IMG/VR virus record: IMGVR_UViG_2778261510_000015 | Location: 1 to 21,211 of that record | DNA length: 21,211 nucleotides | Direction: 5' to 3' (one strand) | From: a virus | Taxonomy: Duplodnaviria; Heunggongvirae; Uroviricota; Caudoviricetes | Part shown: positions 3,622-18,979 of the stretch, in pieces | Numbering within the stretch: the first letter of the stretch is position 1 | Layout: each line of letters begins with the position of its first letter | Notes under the pieces: generated by a model | The model's input: only the letters and a program-made list of their open reading frames with translations | Databases searched by the model: none | Told to the model about the DNA's origin: nothing | Position numbers and translations under genes: made by a program

Positions 3622-4290
3622 TTATAGCTCCTTTAATCGAGGCGGTTCTGGTAGAGGCATCCAGTGGGTTACCTCTTTGAGATACAGGTCTTCGCCATCA
3701 CCGTCATCCCAAGTGGGATTGCCATCATTAAACCAGTCGCCATATACGCCGACCTGAGTGTTGGGGATGTTTGGTGGGTAGTTGTTTTTAAAGTCAGCTG
3801 CTAACACATAGCATTGTCGCTCTCCCATTTCTGGCATTCGCTCACTACAGCTTATCCAACCATCCGGAGTTACCGGATAGTTGCCGGGTTCTTTAATGTG
3901 CAAGCGAGGCTCACCATCTTTTGGCTCAGGCCACTGGCGCTCCATGTTGATCTTCAATTTATCTTCCATAGCTGCGGTAATTTCAGCATCGCTGATGCCA
4001 GCACGGCGCTGTGCATCCCACAACAGAAACTGCATATCAGCCCACTCGCTAAGATCGTCTGGTTCGGCTGCGGCTTCCAGTGCCTCTTTTGAGAGATGTT
4101 TCAGCGGACCAATGGGGCCAACGCAGCCAAATGTGGAGTCAGACCATTTGGCATGCTCGTGGCGAATCTGTTCGCGTTCCAGTGATGCCAGTGCAATTCG
4201 TGCCAGTTCCATTTGTTCGCCACGAGTAAGTCCGTTATCAAGCGGATTTTTAATGAATAATTTGATACGTTCTTTGGTTATAGCGCTCAT
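3622..4290 (-). CDS. DUF551-domain phage protein (222 aa from the AAGGAG-preceded ATG)
   Basis: C-terminal THWMPLPEPP-type motif typical of DUF551; start chosen at ATG 4288..4290 with AAGGAG 8 nt upstream rather than the longest ORF (4323). Confidence 0.6.
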   Translation of the reverse strand: MSAITKERIKLFIKNPLDNGLTRGEQMELARIALASLEREQIRHEHAKWSDSTFGCVGPIGPLKHLSKEALEAAAEPDDLSEWADMQFLLWDAQRRAGISDAEITAAMEDKLKINMERQWPEPKDGEPRLHIKEPGNYPVTPDGWISCSERMPEMGERQCYVLAADFKNNYPPNIPNTQVGVYGDWFNDGNPTWDDGDGEDLYLKEVTHWMPLPEPPRLKEL

Positions 4291-4291
4291 A

Positions 4292-4708
4292 TCACTCTCC
4301 TTTGATGCGAATGCCTGTTGCAATGCTGTTTATGATGCTGTCAGTGCATGGGGTAGAAAGCTGGGCATCTCCAGCAATTCTCATGACCTCAACATCTGCA
4401 TATCGAATACCGAGGTGTATCAGACCGGCTATACCTGACTTAAGCCGAGCATTTTCCATAAACAGATCCTTTGCCCGCTGTTTTTCTGCCTCAAGCTCAA
4501 CGCGCAACTTTCCTACCGTTAACGCAATATCCTCGTTCTCTTGGTCGCGGCGTTTGATGTATTGCTGGTTTCTTTCCCGTTCATCCAGCAGTGCCAGCAC
4601 AACCTGAGGTGTGACTTTCATACGAAATGCCAGCAATTTTTGAGGCGTTGCTACTGTTTCAATTGCTACTGCCGCCTCACGCAGTGCCTGAGAGTTAATT
4701 TCGCTCAC
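4292..4708 (-). CDS. Ea22-like protein (138 aa)
   Basis: N-terminus MSEINSQALREAA... and C-terminus ...GIRIKGE match recalled lambda Ea22 ends; central part differs and is shorter. Confidence 0.65.
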   Translation of the reverse strand: MSEINSQALREAAVAIETVATPQKLLAFRMKVTPQVVLALLDERERNQQYIKRRDQENEDIALTVGKLRVELEAEKQRAKDLFMENARLKSGIAGLIHLGIRYADVEVMRIAGDAQLSTPCTDSIINSIATGIRIKGE

Positions 4709-4926
4709 TTCGAACCTCTCTGTTTACTGATAAGCTCCAGATCCTCCTGGCAACTTGCACAAGTCCGACAACCCTGAACGACCAGGCGTCTTCGTTCATC
4801 TATGGGATCGCCACACTCACAACAATGAGTGGCAGATATAGCCTGGTGGTTCAGGCGGCGCATTTTTATTGCTGTGTTGCGCTGTAATTCTTCGATTTCT
4901 GATGCTGAATCAATGATGTCTGCCAT
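4705..4926 (-). CDS. TraR/DksA-family zinc-finger protein (lambda Orf73-like, 73 aa)
   Basis: C4 motif CxxC...CxxC (CCECGDPIDERRR...CRTCASC) typical of TraR/DksA C4-type zinc fingers; 73 aa. Confidence 0.7.
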   Translation of the reverse strand: MADIIDSASEIEELQRNTAIKMRRLNHQAISATHCCECGDPIDERRRLVVQGCRTCASCQEDLELISKQRGSK

Positions 4927-5024
4927 CTTTCATTAATCCCTGAATTGTTGGTTAATACGCTTGAGGGTGAATGCGAATAATAAAAAAGGATCCTGTAGCT
5001 CCCTGATGATTTTGCTTTTCATGT

Positions 5025-5336
5025 TCATCGCTCCTTAAAGACGCCGTTTAACATGCCGATCGCCAGGCTTAAATGAGTCGGTGTGAATCCCATCAGCGTT
5101 ACCGTTTCGCGGTGCTTCTTCAGTACGCTACGGCAAATGTCATCGACGTTTTTATCCGGAAACTGCTGTCTGGCTTTTTTGATTTCAGAATTAGCCTGAC
5201 GGGCAATACTGCGAAGGGCGTTTTCTTGCTGATGTGTCATTGAACAAGCCCCATGTCGGCAAGCATAAGCACACAGAATATGAAGCCCGCTGCCAGAAAA
5301 ATGCATTCGGTGGTTGTCATACCTGGTCTCTCTCAT
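5025..5336 (-). CDS. Hypothetical protein in the orf61 position (ORF runs 103 aa; true start uncertain)
   Basis: Overlaps orf63 by 20 nt exactly as lambda orf61 does, but the ORF continues well past 61 codons. Confidence 0.5.
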   Translation of the reverse strand: MRETRYDNHRMHFSGSGLHILCAYACRHGACSMTHQQENALRSIARQANSEIKKARQQFPDKNVDDICRSVLKKHRETVTLMGFTPTHLSLAIGMLNGVFKER

Positions 5337-5508
5337 CTGCTTCTGCTTTCGCCACCATCATTTCCAGTTTTTGTGAAAGGGATGTGGCTAACGTATGAAA
5401 TTCTTCGTCTGTTTCTACTGCTATTGGCACAAACCTGACTCCAATTTGAGCAAGGCTATGTGCCATCTCAATACTCGTTCTTAACTCAGCAGGAGATGCT
5501 TTGTGCAT
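5317..5508 (-). CDS. Orf63-like protein (63 aa)
   Basis: Same length and overlap pattern as lambda orf63. Confidence 0.6.
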   Translation of the reverse strand: MHKASPAELRTSIEMAHSLAQIGVRFVPIAVETDEEFHTLATSLSQKLEMMVAKAEADERDQV

Positions 5509-7643: not shown

Positions 7644-7776
7644 TTTTTGGGACTCCTGGCTGATTAAGTATGTCGATAAGGCGTTTCCATCCGTCACGTA
7701 ATTTACGGGTGATTCGTTCAAGTAAAGATTCGGAAGGGCAGCCAGCAACAGGCCACCCTGCAATGGCATATTGCAT
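7612..7776 (-). CDS. cIII: CIII (54 aa), FtsH inhibitor
   Basis: Hand translation from ATG 7774..7776 gives [54 protein letters not shown]; below the 60-aa track threshold. Confidence 0.9.
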   Translation of the reverse strand: MQYAIAGWPVAGCPSESLLERITRKLRDGWKRLIDILNQPGVPKNGSNTYGYPD

Positions 7777-7848
7777 GGTGTGCTCCTTATTTATACATAA
7801 CGAAAAACGCCTCGAGTGAAGCGTTATTGGTATGCGGTAACGCCGCGT

Positions 7849-11926: not shown

Positions 11927-12826
11927 ATGACAAATACAGCAAAAATACTCAACTTCGGCAGAGGTAACTTTGCCGAACAGGAGCGTAATGTGGCAGATCT
12001 CGATGATGGTTACGCCAGACTATCAAATATGCTGCTTGAGGCTTATTCGGGCGCAGATCTGACCAAGCGACAGTTTAAAGTGCTGCTTGCCATTCTGCGT
12101 AAAACCTATGGGTGGAATAAACCTATGGACAGAATCACCGATTCTCAACTTAGCGAGATTACAAAGTTACCTGTCAAACGATGCAATGAAGCCAAGTTAG
12201 AGCTCGTCAGAATGAATATTATCAAGCAGCAAGGCGGCATGTTTGGACCAAATAAAAACATCTCAGAATGGTGTATCCCTCAAAACGAGGGAAAATCCCC
12301 TAAAACGAGGGATAAAACATCCCTCAAATTGGGGGATTGCTATCCCTCAAAACAGGGGAACACAAAAGACACTAATACAAAAGAAAAAAGAAAAGATTAT
12401 TCGTCAGAGAATTCTGGCGAATCCTCTGACCAGCCAGAAAATGATCTTTCTGTGGTTAAACCGGATGCTGCAATTCAGAGCGGCAGCAAGTGGGGAACAG
12501 CAGAAGACCTGACCGCCGCAGAGTGGATGTTTGACATGGTGAAGACCATCGCGCCATCAGCCAGAAAACCGAATTTTGCTGGGTGGGCTAACGATATCCG
12601 CCTGATGCGTGAACGTGACGGACGTAACCACCGCGATATGTGTGTGCTTTTCCGCTGGGCCTGCCAGGACAACTTCTGGTCCGGTAACGTGCTGAGTCCG
12701 GCCAAACTCCGCGACAAGTGGACCCAGCTCGAAATCAACCGTAACAAGCAACAGGCAGGCGTGACAGCCAGCAAACCAAAACTCGACCTGACAAACACTG
12801 ACTGGATTTACGGGGTGGATTTATGA
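11927..12826 (+). CDS. O: Replication initiator O (lambda type)
   Basis: 299-aa ORF matching recalled lambda O; contains the ori iterons. Confidence 0.95.
   Translation: MTNTAKILNFGRGNFAEQERNVADLDDGYARLSNMLLEAYSGADLTKRQFKVLLAILRKTYGWNKPMDRITDSQLSEITKLPVKRCNEAKLELVRMNIIKQQGGMFGPNKNISEWCIPQNEGKSPKTRDKTSLKLGDCYPSKQGNTKDTNTKEKRKDYSSENSGESSDQPENDLSVVKPDAAIQSGSKWGTAEDLTAAEWMFDMVKTIAPSARKPNFAGWANDIRLMRERDGRNHRDMCVLFRWACQDNFWSGNVLSPAKLRDKWTQLEINRNKQQAGVTASKPKLDLTNTDWIYGVDL
12275..12400. repeat. ori lambda: four iterons (ATCCCTCAAAACGAGGGA type) plus AT-rich region inside O
   Basis: Iterons tccctcaaaacgagggaaa / tcccctaaaacgagggata / catccctcaaattggggga / tatccctcaaaacagggga read directly, followed by an A-rich tract. 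Confidence 0.9.
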
Positions 12827-13524
12827 AAAACATCGCCGCACAGATGGTTAACTTTGACCGTGAGCAGATGCGTCGGATCGCCAACAACATGCCGGAACAG
12901 TACGACGAAAAGCCGCAGGTACAACAGGTAGCGCAGATCATCAATGGTGTGTTCAGCCAGTTACTGGCAACTTTCCCGGCGAGCCTGGCTAACCGGGACC
13001 AGAACGAACTGAACGAAATCCGCCGCCAGTGGGTGCTGGCTTTCCGGGAAAACGGGATCACCACAATGGAACAGGTTAACGCAGGAATGCGCGTAGCCCG
13101 TCGGCAGAATCGACCATTTCTGCCATCACCCGGGCAGTTTGTTGCATGGTGCCGGGAAGAAGCATCCGTTATCGCCGGACTGCCAAACGTCAGCGAGCTG
13201 GTTGATATGGTTTACGAGTATTGCCGGAAGCGAGGCCTGTATCCGGATGCGGAGTCTTATCCGTGGAAATCAAACGCGCACTACTGGCTGGTTACCAACC
13301 TGTATCAGAACATGCGGGCCAATGCGCTTACTGATGCGGAATTACGGCGCAAGGCTGCCGATGAACTGACCTGTATGACAGCGCGAATTAACCGTGGTGA
13401 GACGATACCTGAACCAGTAAAACAACTTCCTGTTATGGGCGGTAGACCTCTAAATCGTGCACAGGCTCTGGCGAAGATCGCAGAAATTAAAGCTAAGTTC
13501 GGACTGAAAGGAGCAAGTGTATGA
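12823..13524 (+). CDS. P: Replication protein P (DnaB loader)
   Basis: 233-aa ORF matching recalled lambda P. Confidence 0.95.
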   Translation: MKNIAAQMVNFDREQMRRIANNMPEQYDEKPQVQQVAQIINGVFSQLLATFPASLANRDQNELNEIRRQWVLAFRENGITTMEQVNAGMRVARRQNRPFLPSPGQFVAWCREEASVIAGLPNVSELVDMVYEYCRKRGLYPDAESYPWKSNAHYWLVTNLYQNMRANALTDAELRRKAADELTCMTARINRGETIPEPVKQLPVMGGRPLNRAQALAKIAEIKAKFGLKGASV

Positions 13525-13811
13525 CGGGCAAAGAGGCAATTATTCATTACCTGGGGACGCATAATAGCTTCTGTGCGCCGGACGTTGCCGCGCTAACAGG
13601 CGCAACAGTAACCAGCATAAATCAGGCCGCGGCTAAAATGGCACGGGCAGGTCTTCTGGTTATCGAAGGTAAGGTCTGGCGAACGGTGTATTACCGGTTT
13701 GCTACCAGGGAAGAACGGGAAGGAAAGATGAGCACGAACCTGATTTTTAAGGAGTGTCGCCAGAGTGCCGCGATGAAACGGGTATTGGCGGTATATGGAG
13801 TTAAAAGATGA
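13521..13811 (+). CDS. ren: Ren
   Basis: 96-aa ORF matching recalled lambda Ren. Confidence 0.9.
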   Translation: MTGKEAIIHYLGTHNSFCAPDVAALTGATVTSINQAAAKMARAGLLVIEGKVWRTVYYRFATREEREGKMSTNLIFKECRQSAAMKRVLAVYGVKR

Positions 13812-13836: not shown

Positions 13837-13868
13837 AGGCCTGCTGGTAATCGCAGGCCTTTTTATTT
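13837..13868 (+). terminator. tR2 intrinsic terminator
   Basis: Hairpin AGGCCTGC-TGGTAATC-GCAGGCCT followed by TTTTATTT; matches my recollection of lambda tR2. Confidence 0.8.
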
Positions 13869-14097: not shown

Positions 14098-14544
14098 ATG
14101 AAGCAAATATACATGCTTCGCAACGAAGCAATCAGAAACAACGCCATAGACGCAATACTCTCACTTCCGATCGACGACAAGTCACCTCACGAAGTCCACA
14201 TTAAAGAACCAAAGCGGAGCAATCCTCAAAACCGCCTTATGTGGGCGTTATTGCAGGACGTATCGCGTCAGGTGCTTTGGCATGGAGAGAGACTTGCGCC
14301 GGAGGACTGGAAAGACCTGTTCACTGCCCTGTGGCTTAAGACCAAAAAACTGGAGCAACGAAGTGCGCCTGGTATCGACGGTGGCGTTGTTATGCTTGGC
14401 GTGCGTACCAGCAAAATGCGAAAGGCCAGCATGACTGAGCTTATCGAAATCATGTTCTGGTTCGGCTCAGAGCGCAACGTGCGGTGGAGTGATGACTCCC
14501 GGCGAGAGTATGAATGGTCACAACGAAAAGGGAAGGCTGCATGA
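14098..14544 (+). CDS. ninB: NinB/Orf-family recombination mediator (divergent from lambda NinB)
   Basis: 148 aa; shares the NinB core pattern ...QNR.LWA.L.DVSRQV.WHG... with recalled lambda NinB. Confidence 0.75.
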   Translation: MKQIYMLRNEAIRNNAIDAILSLPIDDKSPHEVHIKEPKRSNPQNRLMWALLQDVSRQVLWHGERLAPEDWKDLFTALWLKTKKLEQRSAPGIDGGVVMLGVRTSKMRKASMTELIEIMFWFGSERNVRWSDDSRREYEWSQRKGKAA

Positions 14545-15068
14545 CTATCAAATCAAATACGCCAGCACACGACAAGGACTGCTGGCAAACGCCGCTTTGG
14601 CTTTTTGATGCGCTGGATATTGAGTTTGGATTCTGGCTGGATTCAGCTGCGAGCGACAAAAACGCTCTGTGCGCTCACTGGCTAACTGAGGCCGACGACG
14701 CGCTAAATTCTGAGTGGATAAGCCACGGTGCAATCTGGAATAACCCACCGTACAGCAATATCAGGCCGTGGGTGGAAAAAGCCGCTGAGCAGTGCATACA
14801 ACAGCGACAGACGGTAGTTATGCTTGTGCCAGAGGATATGTCAGTCGGATGGTTCAGCAAGGCTCTGGAGAGTGTCGACGAAGTTCGTATTATCACTGAT
14901 GGACGGATTAATTTTATCGAACCATCGACGGGGCTGGAGAAGAAGGGAAACAGCAAAGGCTCCATGCTGCTGATTTGGCGACCGTTCATCAGTCCTCGAC
15001 GGATGTTTACTACCGTATCCAAAGCGGCATTGATGGCGATCGGGCAGGGTGTCAGGAGGGCTGCATGA
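14541..15068 (+). CDS. Phage Dam-type N6-adenine DNA methyltransferase (175 aa)
   Basis: NPPY catalytic motif (IWNNPPYSN); start ATG overlaps ninB stop (ATGA). Confidence 0.8.
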   Translation: MTIKSNTPAHDKDCWQTPLWLFDALDIEFGFWLDSAASDKNALCAHWLTEADDALNSEWISHGAIWNNPPYSNIRPWVEKAAEQCIQQRQTVVMLVPEDMSVGWFSKALESVDEVRIITDGRINFIEPSTGLEKKGNSKGSMLLIWRPFISPRRMFTTVSKAALMAIGQGVRRAA

Positions 15069-15910
15069 TAAATGTCGTTAGTTTCTCAGGTGGCAGGACG
15101 TCAGCATATTTGCTCTGGCTAATGGAGCAAAAGCGACAGGCAGGTGAAGACGTGCATTACGTTTTCATGGATACAGGGGCAGAGCACCCTAAAACATATG
15201 AGTTCATCCGAAATATCGTCAGTAACTGGAAAATAGACTTATATTGCCTTCGTGTAATACCTAATCCAGAAATGGGGAAGGCCAGTAGTTATGAAGAGAT
15301 AGGTGTCAATGATATTGGTCCAGATCTTATACCGTGGAAAAGGATGTTGAATAAATACGGACATCCATATATCGGCGGTGCGTTCTGTACCGACAGAATG
15401 AAGTCTGTTCCATTCACCAAATATTGTCAGGAAAAGTTTGGGAAAGGAAATTACATCACATGGCTTGGCATTCGCACAGATGAACCAAACAGGCTTAAAA
15501 GGGCTAATGGTTTTCGGTACCTGGCTGATATAAGCGATTTTGAAAAACAGGATGTGCTTGATTGGTGGAGTGAGCAGAAGTTTGATCTTGGCATACAGGA
15601 GCATCTTGGTAATTGTGTTTTCTGCATAAAAAAAAGTATGCAAAAGGTGGCGCTGGCAGCCATGGATGAGCCAGAACTTGCAGATGCATTTATCAACATC
15701 CTTGATACAGAAATAAAAACAGGAAAGGAACCGGTTATGTATCGAGGGAATAATACACTTAAATCACTGATTGCCTTGTTTAGTGATATATCAAGAGATG
15801 AGTTAGCCTCAAGAATGACATCAATGCGACAGTATGATTCAGGTTCGTGTTCTGAATCATGTGAAGCATTTTCATGTCAGCTTGGATTTAATTTTGAGGA
15901 TGCGTCATGA
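15065..15910 (+). CDS. PAPS-reductase-family PP-loop protein (281 aa), occupying the ninC position
   Basis: PP-loop [12 protein letters not shown] near N-terminus; start overlaps methyltransferase stop (ATGA). Confidence 0.7.
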
Positions 15911-16089
15911 GACGACAGCGACGAAGTATCACCGACATCATCTGCGAAAACTGCAAATACCTTCCAACGAAACGCTCCAGAAATAAACGCAAGCCAATCC
16001 CAAAAGAATCTGACGTAAAAACCTTCAACTACACGGCTCACCTGTGGGATATCCGGTGGCTTAGAGAACGTGCGAGGAAAACAAGGTGA
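15907..16089 (+). CDS. ninE: NinE (60 aa)
   Basis: Matches recalled lambda NinE. Confidence 0.8.
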
Positions 16090-16189: not shown

Positions 16190-16735
16190 GCGTTGTATAT
16201 ATGAATGCTTAAATATGGTGGAACATAATGAGAAATATAAGCAACATAGACGAATTAAGAAATAAATTATCATATGATGATGTTTTAGGTGTGCTTAGAT
16301 GGAAAGTGTCTCCTTCTAATAATGTTAAGGTTGGCAGTGTTGCTGGTTACATTAGGAGTGATGGTTATAGGATGTTAACTATCGATGGTGTAATTACTTA
16401 TGCTCACCACGTTATATGGATGATAAATAATGGTGAGATTCCATTAGGGTATAAAATTGATCATATAAATGGAGTAAGGTCAGATAATAGGCTATCTAAT
16501 CTTCGATTGGTTACACACCAACAAAATGCACAGAACCAAAAGAGAAAAATAACCAATTCGTCAGGAGTGACTGGAGTGTATTTCAATAAAGAGAGATGCA
16601 AGTGGATTGCGAATATATGCGTAGATGGGCGCACCAAATATCTTGGAATATTTGCTAGCATCATTGACGCTATTGCAGAAAGGAAGAGGGCAGAAAAAGA
16701 ACTGGGTTTTCATGAAAACCATGGCAGACCATAAC
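16190..16735 (+). mobile_element. Free-standing homing endonuclease gene insertion within ninF (approximate boundaries)
   Basis: AT-rich block interrupting a conserved gene and carrying an HNH ORF; left boundary after gtgtgtgag, right boundary at the HNH stop. Confidence 0.65.
16228..16734 (+). CDS. HNH homing endonuclease with C-terminal AP2-like DNA-binding domain (168 aa)
   Basis: HNH_3-type motif IDHINGVRSDNRLSNLRLVTHQQNAQN; AP2-like segment SGVTGVYFNKERCKWIANICVDGRTKYLGIF; markedly AT-rich codon usage. Confidence 0.8.
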   Translation: MRNISNIDELRNKLSYDDVLGVLRWKVSPSNNVKVGSVAGYIRSDGYRMLTIDGVITYAHHVIWMINNGEIPLGYKIDHINGVRSDNRLSNLRLVTHQQNAQNQKRKITNSSGVTGVYFNKERCKWIANICVDGRTKYLGIFASIIDAIAERKRAEKELGFHENHGRP

Positions 16736-16787: not shown

Positions 16788-17399
16788 ATGGCTAAACCAG
16801 CGCGAAGACGATGTAAAAACGATGAATGTCGGGAATGGTTTCACCCTGCATTCGCTAATCAGTGGTGGTGCTCTCCAGAGTGTGGAACCAAGATAGCACT
16901 CGAACGACGAAGTAAAGAACGCGAAAAAGCGGAAAAAGCAGCAGAGAAGAAACGACGACGAGAGGATCAGAGACAGAAAGATAAACTTAAGATTCGAAAA
17001 CTCGCCTTAAAGCCCCGCAGTTACTGGATTAAACAAGCCCAACAAGCCGTAAACGCCTTCATCAGAGAAAGAGACCGCGACTTACCATGTATCTCGTGCG
17101 GAACGCTCACGTCTGCTCAGTGGGATGCCGGACATTACCGGACAACTGCTGCGGCACCTCAACTCCGATTTGATGAACGCAATATTCACAAGCAATGCGT
17201 GGTGTGCAACCAGCACAAAAGCGGAAATCTCGTTCCGTATCGCGTCGAACTGATTAATCGCATCGGGCAGGAAGCAGTAGACGAAATCGAATCAAACCAT
17301 AACCGCCATCGCTGGACTGTCGAAGAGTGCAGGGCCATCAAGGCGGAGTATCAGCAGAAACTCAAAGACCTGCGAAATAGCAGAAGTGAGGCCGCATGA
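16788..17399 (+). CDS. ninG: NinG (Rap) recombination-associated protein
   Basis: 203-aa ORF matching recalled lambda NinG. Confidence 0.9.
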
Positions 17400-18823: not shown

Positions 18824-18898
18824 GGGTCAGTCGTATAAAGGTCATTACGGAAGGCTGTTAACCTTCTTATCGTGGTTCGAGTCCACGCTGTCCCGCCA
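18824..18898 (+). tRNA. tRNA-like gene, anticodon GTT (Asn), 3' CCA encoded; one U-U mismatch in acceptor stem
   Basis: Hand-folded cloverleaf: acceptor GGGTCAG/CTGTCCC, anticodon stem GAAGG/CCTTC with loop CTGTTAA, T-arm CGTGG-TTCGAGT-CCACG. Confidence 0.6.
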
Positions 18899-18903
18899 AA
18901 CAT

Positions 18904-18979
18904 GCTGGTTTAGCTCCAATGGTAGAGCAGTCGCCTTGTAAGCGAATGGGTAGCGGTTCAAGTCCGTTAACCAGCACCA
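18904..18979 (+). tRNA. tRNA gene, anticodon TGT (Thr), 3' CCA encoded
   Basis: Hand-folded cloverleaf: perfect acceptor stem GCTGGTT/AACCAGC, D-arm GCTC-CAATGGTA-GAGC, anticodon loop CTTGTAA, T-loop TTCAAGT. Confidence 0.7.

Follow-up and report, generated by a model that had tools for sequence, protein, structure and literature searches.

Does a gene for a Dam-type DNA methyltransferase, translationally coupled to a gene for a PP-loop (ATP-pyrophosphatase loop) protein in the nin region of a lambda-like prophage, form a DNA-modification module with its neighbour, or are the two genes independent? The question was raised by a 21,211-nucleotide (nt) stretch of Caudoviricetes DNA, record IMGVR_UViG_2778261510_000015 of IMG/VR, which is referred to in full length as the window. 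In a reading made from the letters alone (the sequence-only reading), the two genes, located between ninB and ninE (Table 1), had been proposed to act as an anti-restriction module, and it had been left undecided whether the PP-loop protein is an ordinary homologue of lambda NinC. The analysis described here identifies the genes as dam and ninC and finds them to be separable, and of these identities and this separability we are practically certain. As the best explanation of the pair we favour, as probable, two separable, co-expressed anti-restriction genes, with NinC probably being a DndC/SspD-like ATP pyrophosphatase directed against phosphorothioate (PT) defence. The window segment itself is ordinary: many E. 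coli prophages have annotated copies that are nearly identical.

The 175-amino-acid (aa) protein had been assigned to the Dam-type methyltransferases by its NPPY motif, and this assignment was upheld: it is a full-length PF05869 Dam (E = 8e-65, 218 bits against a cutoff of 28.1), it scored 264.2 bits with TIGR01712 phage_N6A_met (cutoff 97.05), and NPPY was found at residues 68–71. The TIGR01712/PF05869 phage N6-adenine methyltransferases include the Dam proteins of T1 and HP1. M.EcoVT2Dam, the Dam of prophage VT2-Sakai, is identical to the window Dam in 174 of 175 residues; both genes directly follow ninB and both products carry NPPY, whereas the next gene after dam is ninE or another small one in VT2-Sakai and most Shiga toxin (Stx) phages, and ninC in the window. 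The reported target of M.EcoVT2Dam is GATC (PMC6602927, citing Radlinska & Bujnicki 2001). Going by the near-identity (174/175), the window Dam would be a GATC-specific N6-methyladenine (m6A) methylase, that is, an orphan N6-adenine methyltransferase that would methylate GATC on replicating phage DNA.

The 281-aa protein, in which an SGG-type PP-loop had been recognized, indeed contains an intact SGGxxS and matched PF01507 (E = 5e-8) and phrog_33262 (E = 4e-113). By the profile E-values of the two proteins, their motifs reflect family membership and not coincidence. Alignment with lambda NinC (Nin 290, Nin290, lambdap64) answered the question of its identity: the proteins share 57% identity (E = 1e-118) over residues 1–277 of 281, and their genes occupy the same place in the operon after ninB. 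The first 24 residues are identical, both proteins keep the PP-loop, the CxxC motif and the GSCSESCE tail, and both genes lie in a nin operon behind the same entry linker GGGCTGCATGA. They are divergent alleles, of 290 aa in lambda and 281 aa in the window, where the gene stands behind dam and not, as in lambda, behind ninB, and where ninE follows directly, with no ninD. Although the open reading frame (ORF) as listed extends further 5′ to a TTG at 14975, ATG 15065 was taken as the real start of ninC, since a GGAGGG Shine-Dalgarno sequence lies 5′ of it and the first residue of lambda NinC and of every homologue falls at this codon.

Across 24 NinC homologues, SGGRTS, DTG...EHP.TY, C108, C121, GNC184xxC187 and C266 are conserved. 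The CxxC pair together with the invariant C108 and C121 are candidate metal or Fe-S ligands, and the set C108, C121, C184, C187 and C266 is compatible with a predicted role as an Fe-S cluster/ATP pyrophosphatase protein. The AlphaFold2 (AF2) model of the window NinC (predicted local distance difference test, pLDDT, 84; predicted template modelling score, pTM, 0.84) combined a PP-loop core of Rossmann-like fold with a Cys-rich tail (residues 258–281, pLDDT <50) that is disordered; by analogy, the SCSESCE motif of this tail might play the part that a mobile catalytic Cys tail has in CysH and adenosine 5′-phosphosulfate (APS) reductase. A fold search of BFVD with NinC returned exclusively phage proteins that were unnamed or called 'PAPS reductase' (PAPS, 3′-phosphoadenosine 5′-phosphosulfate). 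As a separate observation, many members of the NinC family carry an insertion of ~60–90 aa right after a conserved DEPxRL (P0076, P0125, P0129, P0150), which was also seen in a group of 345–354-aa proteins (e.g. P0376, P0389), one such cluster having n = 187.

Whether dam and ninC travel together was assessed in 64 IMG/VR loci with NinC relatives and in 5,426 complete E. coli genomes. In IMG/VR, the window ninC allele (at least 98% identity) followed dam in 8 loci and directly followed ninB in 9, lambda-type ninC alleles occurred mostly without dam, and alleles of 62–72% identity were located after ninG; conversely, ninC was absent from all of the best 80 Dam loci in IMG/VR. The ninB-dam block occurs without ninC in hundreds of published phage records, mostly of Stx phages, and in Salmonella phage vB_SosS_Oslo the order ninB-dam-ninC is already annotated, there with a lambda-type ninC. 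In E. coli, dam was present in 1,540 genomes, the full-length window ninC allele in 28 and the much more frequent lambda-type ninC in 149; a junction of dam with the window allele and one of dam with lambda-type ninC were each found in 18 genomes. Thus about 2% of dam genes have ninC behind them, and in about 20% of cases ninC has dam in front of it. Because dam is so common in nin regions (2,193 places in E. coli, against 2,439 for ninG), its adjacency to ninC is no more than expected, and since both genes assort independently in IMG/VR and in E. coli, the pair is not an obligate module; an obligate dam-ninC module was ruled out on these co-occurrence counts.

The coupling of the two genes leads to the same conclusion. 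The ATGA overlaps that had been described between ninB, the 175-aa ORF and the 281-aa ORF were all found (Table 1), and a third joins ninC to ninE. However, 4-nt ATGA or GTGA overlaps occur at 6 of the 10 consecutive junctions from P to ninH, so overlap is the rule in this operon and not a mark of the dam-ninC pair. The dam/ninC boundary lies within a short linker whose core, GGGCnGCATGA, is common to the ninB/ninC boundary of lambda, the dam/ninC boundaries of the window and of vB_SosS_Oslo, and the dam/ninE boundary of VT2-Sakai, and which codes for Ala-Ala followed by a stop codon and the start of the next gene. An -AA C-terminus is present on many nin proteins, on NinC homologues and on NinC-methylase fusions. 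The linker probably provides the short stretch of homology through which nin cassettes are shuffled, and in this way would allow them to recombine freely. The looser form G(C/G)nGCATGA was observed at different nin boundaries, namely at 14533–14544, 15057–15068 and 17388–17399 of the window and in the lambda and VT2-Sakai loci (L001 and L151).

A functional link between NinC and DNA methylation is suggested by proteins in which the two are covalently joined. When a NinC-family profile was searched against 1.84 billion representative proteins, 2,741 relatives were retrieved, among them, by Pfam assignment, fusions with PF05869 Dam in the two possible orders, NinC-Dam (P0121, P0129, P0150) and Dam-NinC (P0122, P0124), and a fusion of NinC with a D12 Dam (P0125). 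With one fusion as query, more than 35 clusters (90% identity) of NinC with PF05869 and about 12 clusters of NinC with PF02086 (D12) were obtained, as well as single proteins joining NinC to PF01555 (N6_N4), to MT-A70 (PF05063) or to a C5-methylase (PF00145); in P0126 the partner is an unclassified NPPF methylase. The partners thus belong to about 6 DNA methyltransferase families, in Enterobacterales, Shewanella and Vibrio. Full-length members of 482–520 aa are represented in RefSeq from Providencia, Proteus, Yersinia, Klebsiella, Enterobacter, Salmonella, Rahnella and Shewanella, and further clusters, named by source, come from Serratia, Pectobacterium, Morganella, Pantoea and Erwinia. An origin of the PF05869 fusions as gene-calling or frameshift artefacts was considered and ruled out by the dozens of full-length members, the WP_ records, the acidic linkers of ~25 aa and the occurrence of two orders. 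In the D12 clusters P0327 and P0325, stand-alone Dam proteins inflate the member counts, but the D12 fusions are still backed by about 12 separate clusters, whose representatives are 569–593 aa long.

The fusion genes lie in varied prophage regions, in Serratia within the interval between replication genes and Q, in another case after RecT and before int. Unfused genes show the same association: within the 64 IMG/VR loci, a methylase gene situated within ~4 kb of an unfused ninC, on either side, adjoined it (≤24 nt) in 14 of 14 cases. In two of these loci (L028 and L030, positions 3989–5433) the same NinC allele stands after RecT and Gp157 genes, and its gene overlaps by 4 nt with the methylase gene that follows, which encodes a PF05869 Dam in the one locus and an MT-A70 methylase in the other. 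The common factor is 'DNA methyltransferase' and not one methylated base, which speaks for a part of NinC in the process that the methylases serve rather than for action on their product. The AF2 model of the fusion P0321 (pTM 0.55) consisted of confidently predicted domains and a disordered linker at residues 263–318, with no fixed Dam-NinC interface predicted; such beads on a string are consistent with function of the domains as separate proteins. Apart from the NinC-methylase fusions, related prophages encode fusions of a C5-cytosine methylase with a PF05869 Dam (P0326, P0329, P0331; 734–750 aa), and in P0370 (824 aa) a RecE-like N-terminal region is joined to NinC. The stringing of DNA-directed early functions into one protein seems to be common in these phages.

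One such fusion has been connected with a phenotype. The podovirus 44E38.1 of Vibrio crassostreae encodes p0018, a 479-aa protein with a PAPS domain (4–175) and a Dam domain (299–470), and a related phage into which p0018 and p0019 had been moved was able to grow on a Dnd-carrying host. The recipient possessed a stand-alone Dam of its own that shares 96% identity with the Dam domain of p0018. Piel et al. (bioRxiv 10.1101/2021.05.05.442762) describe an anti-Dnd system and regard it as 'related at least in part' to the PAPS domain. With an enterobacterial fusion as tblastn query, the p0018 gene was recovered at 49% identity over 92% of the length. Its N-terminal domain matched the window NinC at 62% identity over residues 1–270 (E = 3e-122), with all motifs kept, so that the window NinC is closer to the vibriophage PAPS domain than to lambda NinC (57%). 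The C-terminal PF05869 Dam shares 38% identity (E = 1e-31) with the window Dam and carries NCPY where the window Dam has NPPY (locus L152, 3995–5434), which puts full methyltransferase activity of the p0018 Dam in question. Whereas p0018 is one polypeptide in the order NinC-Dam, the window has two ORFs in the order Dam-NinC, with the TGA of the former overlapping the ATG of the latter. A homologue of p0019 (DUF6475) was searched for in the window by tblastn, and nothing better than E = 1.2 was found. The window pair accordingly belongs, as a split enterobacterial version, to a kind of PAPS-plus-methylase pairing that had been described before in fused form. Of the module proposed by the sequence-only reading, the two-gene unit was given up in view of independent assortment and generic overlaps, and the shared anti-restriction role was retained in view of the fusions, the adjacency and the published experiment.

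A relation of the PP-loop protein to DndC had also been suggested, and profile matches speak for it. In the PADLOC defence library, the N-terminal half of NinC matched SspD (3e-14, confined to profile positions 3–122 of 277), BrxP (7e-8) and DndC (5e-4), but with the DndC model TIGR03183 it reached 11.9 bits, against a cutoff of 290.4. DndC, SspD and BrxP share with NinC the PAPS-reductase fold with an intact PP-loop, and the conserved cysteines would be in keeping with an Fe-S or persulfide function. Judged by profile, NinC is a clade of its own, to which the DNA-phosphorothioation sulfurtransferases appear nearest. A difference lies in the company of the proteins: known PT writers need an NTPase (DndD/SspC/BrxC) and a DNA-binding or nicking partner (DndE/SspB), and the phage-encoded NinC of the window stands alone among the genes from O to Q.

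In the proposed mechanism, Dam and NinC would most likely serve the same purpose, shielding phage DNA from host restriction, Dam by methylation and NinC probably as an adenylating, sulfur-handling enzyme of the DndC/SspD kind. NinC may adenylate a substrate and move sulfur or another nucleophile, and thereby defeat PT-based restriction (Dnd, Ssp, BREX type 4). As it lacks partners of the DndD/DndE type, it would have to borrow the PT machinery of the host to mark phage DNA, or else interfere with that machinery; either way, the lack of a NinC phenotype or extra modification in lambda grown on dnd-free K-12 would be accounted for. We infer both the anti-Dnd, anti-PT activity of the window NinC and the chemistry of NinC; the chances that the window protein has an anti-restriction or anti-PT role are, in our estimate, even at best or slightly lower. 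The extension to the whole NinC family, lambda NinC included, as stand-alone DndC/SspD mimics that counter PT immunity (Dnd, Ssp, BREX type 4) is put forward tentatively, and we would sooner expect it to fail than to hold. If it is true, NinC could work together with host IscS/DndA and DndDE in labelling phage DNA as self, or could poison them; it would be silent in K-12, which is free of dnd, and this would explain the absence of a phenotype or modification there; and methylases would be habitual partners of NinC, adjacent or fused, because both mask DNA.

Several points weigh against the favoured explanation. E. coli dam is not enriched beside ninC (36 of ~177 ninC-bearing genomes), the matches of NinC to the SspD, DndC and BrxP models cover the N-terminal half only and stay far under the cutoffs, and in the nin region from O to Q, where all genes were assigned, no P-loop NTPase of the DndD/SspC/BrxC type, no nickase and no cysteine desulfurase was found. 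The nin region is dispensable for plaque formation by lambda. To our knowledge, lambda DNA from K-12 carries no modification beyond those of host Dam and Dcm, despite the presence of NinC. Every known PT-writing system requires both a PAPS-domain protein and a P-loop NTPase (PMC12914056). In the vibriophage experiment, p0018 and p0019 were transferred jointly and the domains were not dissected (bioRxiv 10.1101/2021.05.05.442762). Coral vibriophages carrying PAPS genes infect both a Dnd+ and a Dnd− strain, an observation that is uninformative either way.

Among the competing explanations, dam and ninC could be pure mosaic neighbours that share a recombination hot spot after ninB, NinC having an unrelated role, for instance a regulatory or recombination-accessory one. 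The independent assortment and common linker, the lack of dam enrichment beside ninC in E. coli and the absence of a known phenotype or interaction of lambda NinC all agree with this, but one site can hardly explain why NinC is fused, in either order and in varied contexts, to about 6 methyltransferase families that are unrelated, nor why adjacency also occurs outside nin regions with the methylase families swapped, and the published anti-Dnd phenotype of the fusion speaks against it as well; we therefore regard pure mosaicism as unlikely. Co-operation in the opposite extreme, an obligate two-enzyme pathway in which NinC elaborates the m6A of Dam, or Dam acts on the product of NinC, to yield a new hypermodified base, would suit the tight linkage and coupling in the window and the existence of fusions. 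Each gene is, however, mostly found alone, C5-cytosine and N4/N6 methylases as partners have no methylated base in common, the recipient vibriophage already had Dam so that the swap added the PAPS domain and p0019, and no fixed interface between the domains was predicted, all of which makes such a pathway extremely improbable.

Other explanations would separate NinC from DNA altogether. Phage PAPS reductases are usually labelled auxiliary metabolic genes (AMGs), and NinC could be a true PAPS/APS reductase that raises sulfur assimilation during infection, perhaps indirectly for the supply of Cys, Met or S-adenosylmethionine, independently of Dam; the Pfam PAPS_reduct match and the nearest solved structures, CysH and APS reductase (PDB 6vpu, 1sur, 2goy; TM ~0.4–0.5, identity ~19%), fit this. 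Yet NinC scored 17.4 bits with the CysH model PRK02090 (cutoff 154) and 12 bits with TIGR02057 (cutoff 254), and the similarity to CysH is limited to about the first 70–140 residues (to the N-terminal ~70 residues in PDB sequence searches, both from one sequence and from a profile). In a true PAPS reductase the PP-loop is not functional, and the aligned CysH chains of E. coli and Vibrio have the degenerate SSSFG, whereas NinC has kept the ATP-pyrophosphatase loop with SGGxxS intact. CysH carries a C-terminal ECGLH catalytic motif; in the tail of the window NinC, ECGLH was not found and SCSESCE stands instead. As covalent fusion to DNA methylases would moreover be hard to understand for a soluble metabolic enzyme, a metabolic role is quite improbable. 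An RNA-directed PP-loop enzyme, modifying tRNA or rRNA like TilS, TtcA, TtuA or NcsA, perhaps as an escape from anticodon nucleases, with an incidental methylase link, is equally hard to credit, if not slightly harder: the fusion partners are all DNA methyltransferase families, the best profile matches are the DNA-PT enzymes SspD, BrxP and DndC, and the reported phenotype concerns DNA defence. Two separable anti-restriction genes thus remain our preferred explanation of the locus.

Table 1. Positions of the dam-ninC segment, its motifs and further features in the window
Feature	Positions	Strand	Remarks
cIII thermoregulator RNA element (lambda)	7731–7789	−	Rfam, 88.5 bits
O	11927–12826	+	
P	12823–13524	+	
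ren	13521–13811	+	
tR2-like intrinsic terminator, ren/nin boundary	13837–13860	+	8-pair stem (6 G-C), then TTTTATTT
Small ORF, 68 aa	13884–14090	+	GTG start; very hydrophobic; between tR2-like terminator and ninB
ninB	14098–14544	+	Orf-family recombination mediator; PF05772 E = 1.5e-48; phrog_72 E = 8e-60
ATGA overlap, ninB stop/dam start	14541–14544	+	GGCTGC (part of the conserved linker) just 5′
dam	14541–15068	+	175 aa; PF05869, TIGR01712
NPPY, catalytic motif IV	14742–14753	+	Residues 68–71; direct reading and alignment with VT2-Sakai Dam
Cassette-boundary linker GGAGGGCTGCATGA	15055–15068	+	Shine-Dalgarno, Ala-Ala codons, dam stop overlapping ninC start
ATGA overlap, dam stop/ninC start	15065–15068	+	
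ninC homologue	15065–15910	+	281 aa; PF01507, phrog_33262
PP-loop SFSGGRTS (SGGxxS)	15080–15103	+	Residues 6–13; intact; invariant in 24/24 aligned homologues
Largest reverse-strand ORF inside dam/ninC	15239–15643	−	134 aa
CxxC (C184, C187) in GNCVFCIKK	15614–15625	+	Invariant; also kept in fusion proteins
C-terminal SCSESCE (C262, C266)	15845–15865	+	C266 invariant, C262 at least 90% (24 homologues)
ATGA overlap, ninC stop/ninE start	15907–15910	+	
ninE	15907–16089	+	PF05322 E = 3e-43
HNH_3 homing-type endonuclease gene	16228–16734	+	ninF/ninG interval; 38-nt overlap with 3′ end of ninF
tRNA-Asn(GTT)	18824–18898	+	Directly 3′ of Q antiterminator gene
tRNA-Thr(TGT)	18904–18979	+	

By family matches, the window is a lambda-like prophage in which O, P, ren, a terminator, the genes ninB to ninH, a phosphatase gene and Q follow one another on the plus strand; 3′ of ninE lie ninF, the HNH endonuclease gene, ninG, ninH, a NinI-type phosphatase gene, Q, the two tRNA genes and a holin gene. 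The terminator at the ren/nin boundary corresponds in position to tR2 on the lambda map. N antitermination is required for transcription of the nin genes past tR2. In this arrangement, dam and ninC are two separable early lambdoid genes that lie 3′ of the tR2-like terminator in a nin operon driven from pR under N antitermination. The small hydrophobic ORF upstream of ninB had zero matches in Pfam and could encode a small membrane protein or else be no gene. Promoter and terminator scans and Rfam searches returned nothing within dam or ninC, and reverse-strand ORFs exist inside the pair.

Further observations concern the surroundings of the pair. The HNH endonuclease gene is present as an identical copy in an IMG/VR locus (L054) whose ninC is of the different, lambda type, and looks like a mobile insertion into the nin operon. 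The tRNA-Asn/tRNA-Thr pair occupies the same place in Salmonella phage vB_SosS_Oslo. The match to the cIII thermoregulator bears out that the minus strand carries a leftward early operon of the lambda type.

Lambda NinC has been called poorly understood and nonessential (PMC3224144, PMC10695390), and among the papers that could be searched, none was found that links it to the anti-Dnd PAPS domain. Two connections are drawn here. A vibriophage protein that reportedly overcomes Dnd has a PAPS domain to which lambda NinC and the window allele are homologous, and across phages of Gammaproteobacteria this domain habitually occurs together with DNA methyltransferases. A lambda gene of 'function unknown', an orphan for about 40 years, thereby acquires a simple hypothesis that can be tested in the best phage genetic system, and the finding suggests that many genes annotated in phages as 'PAPS reductase' AMGs may be anti-defence genes.

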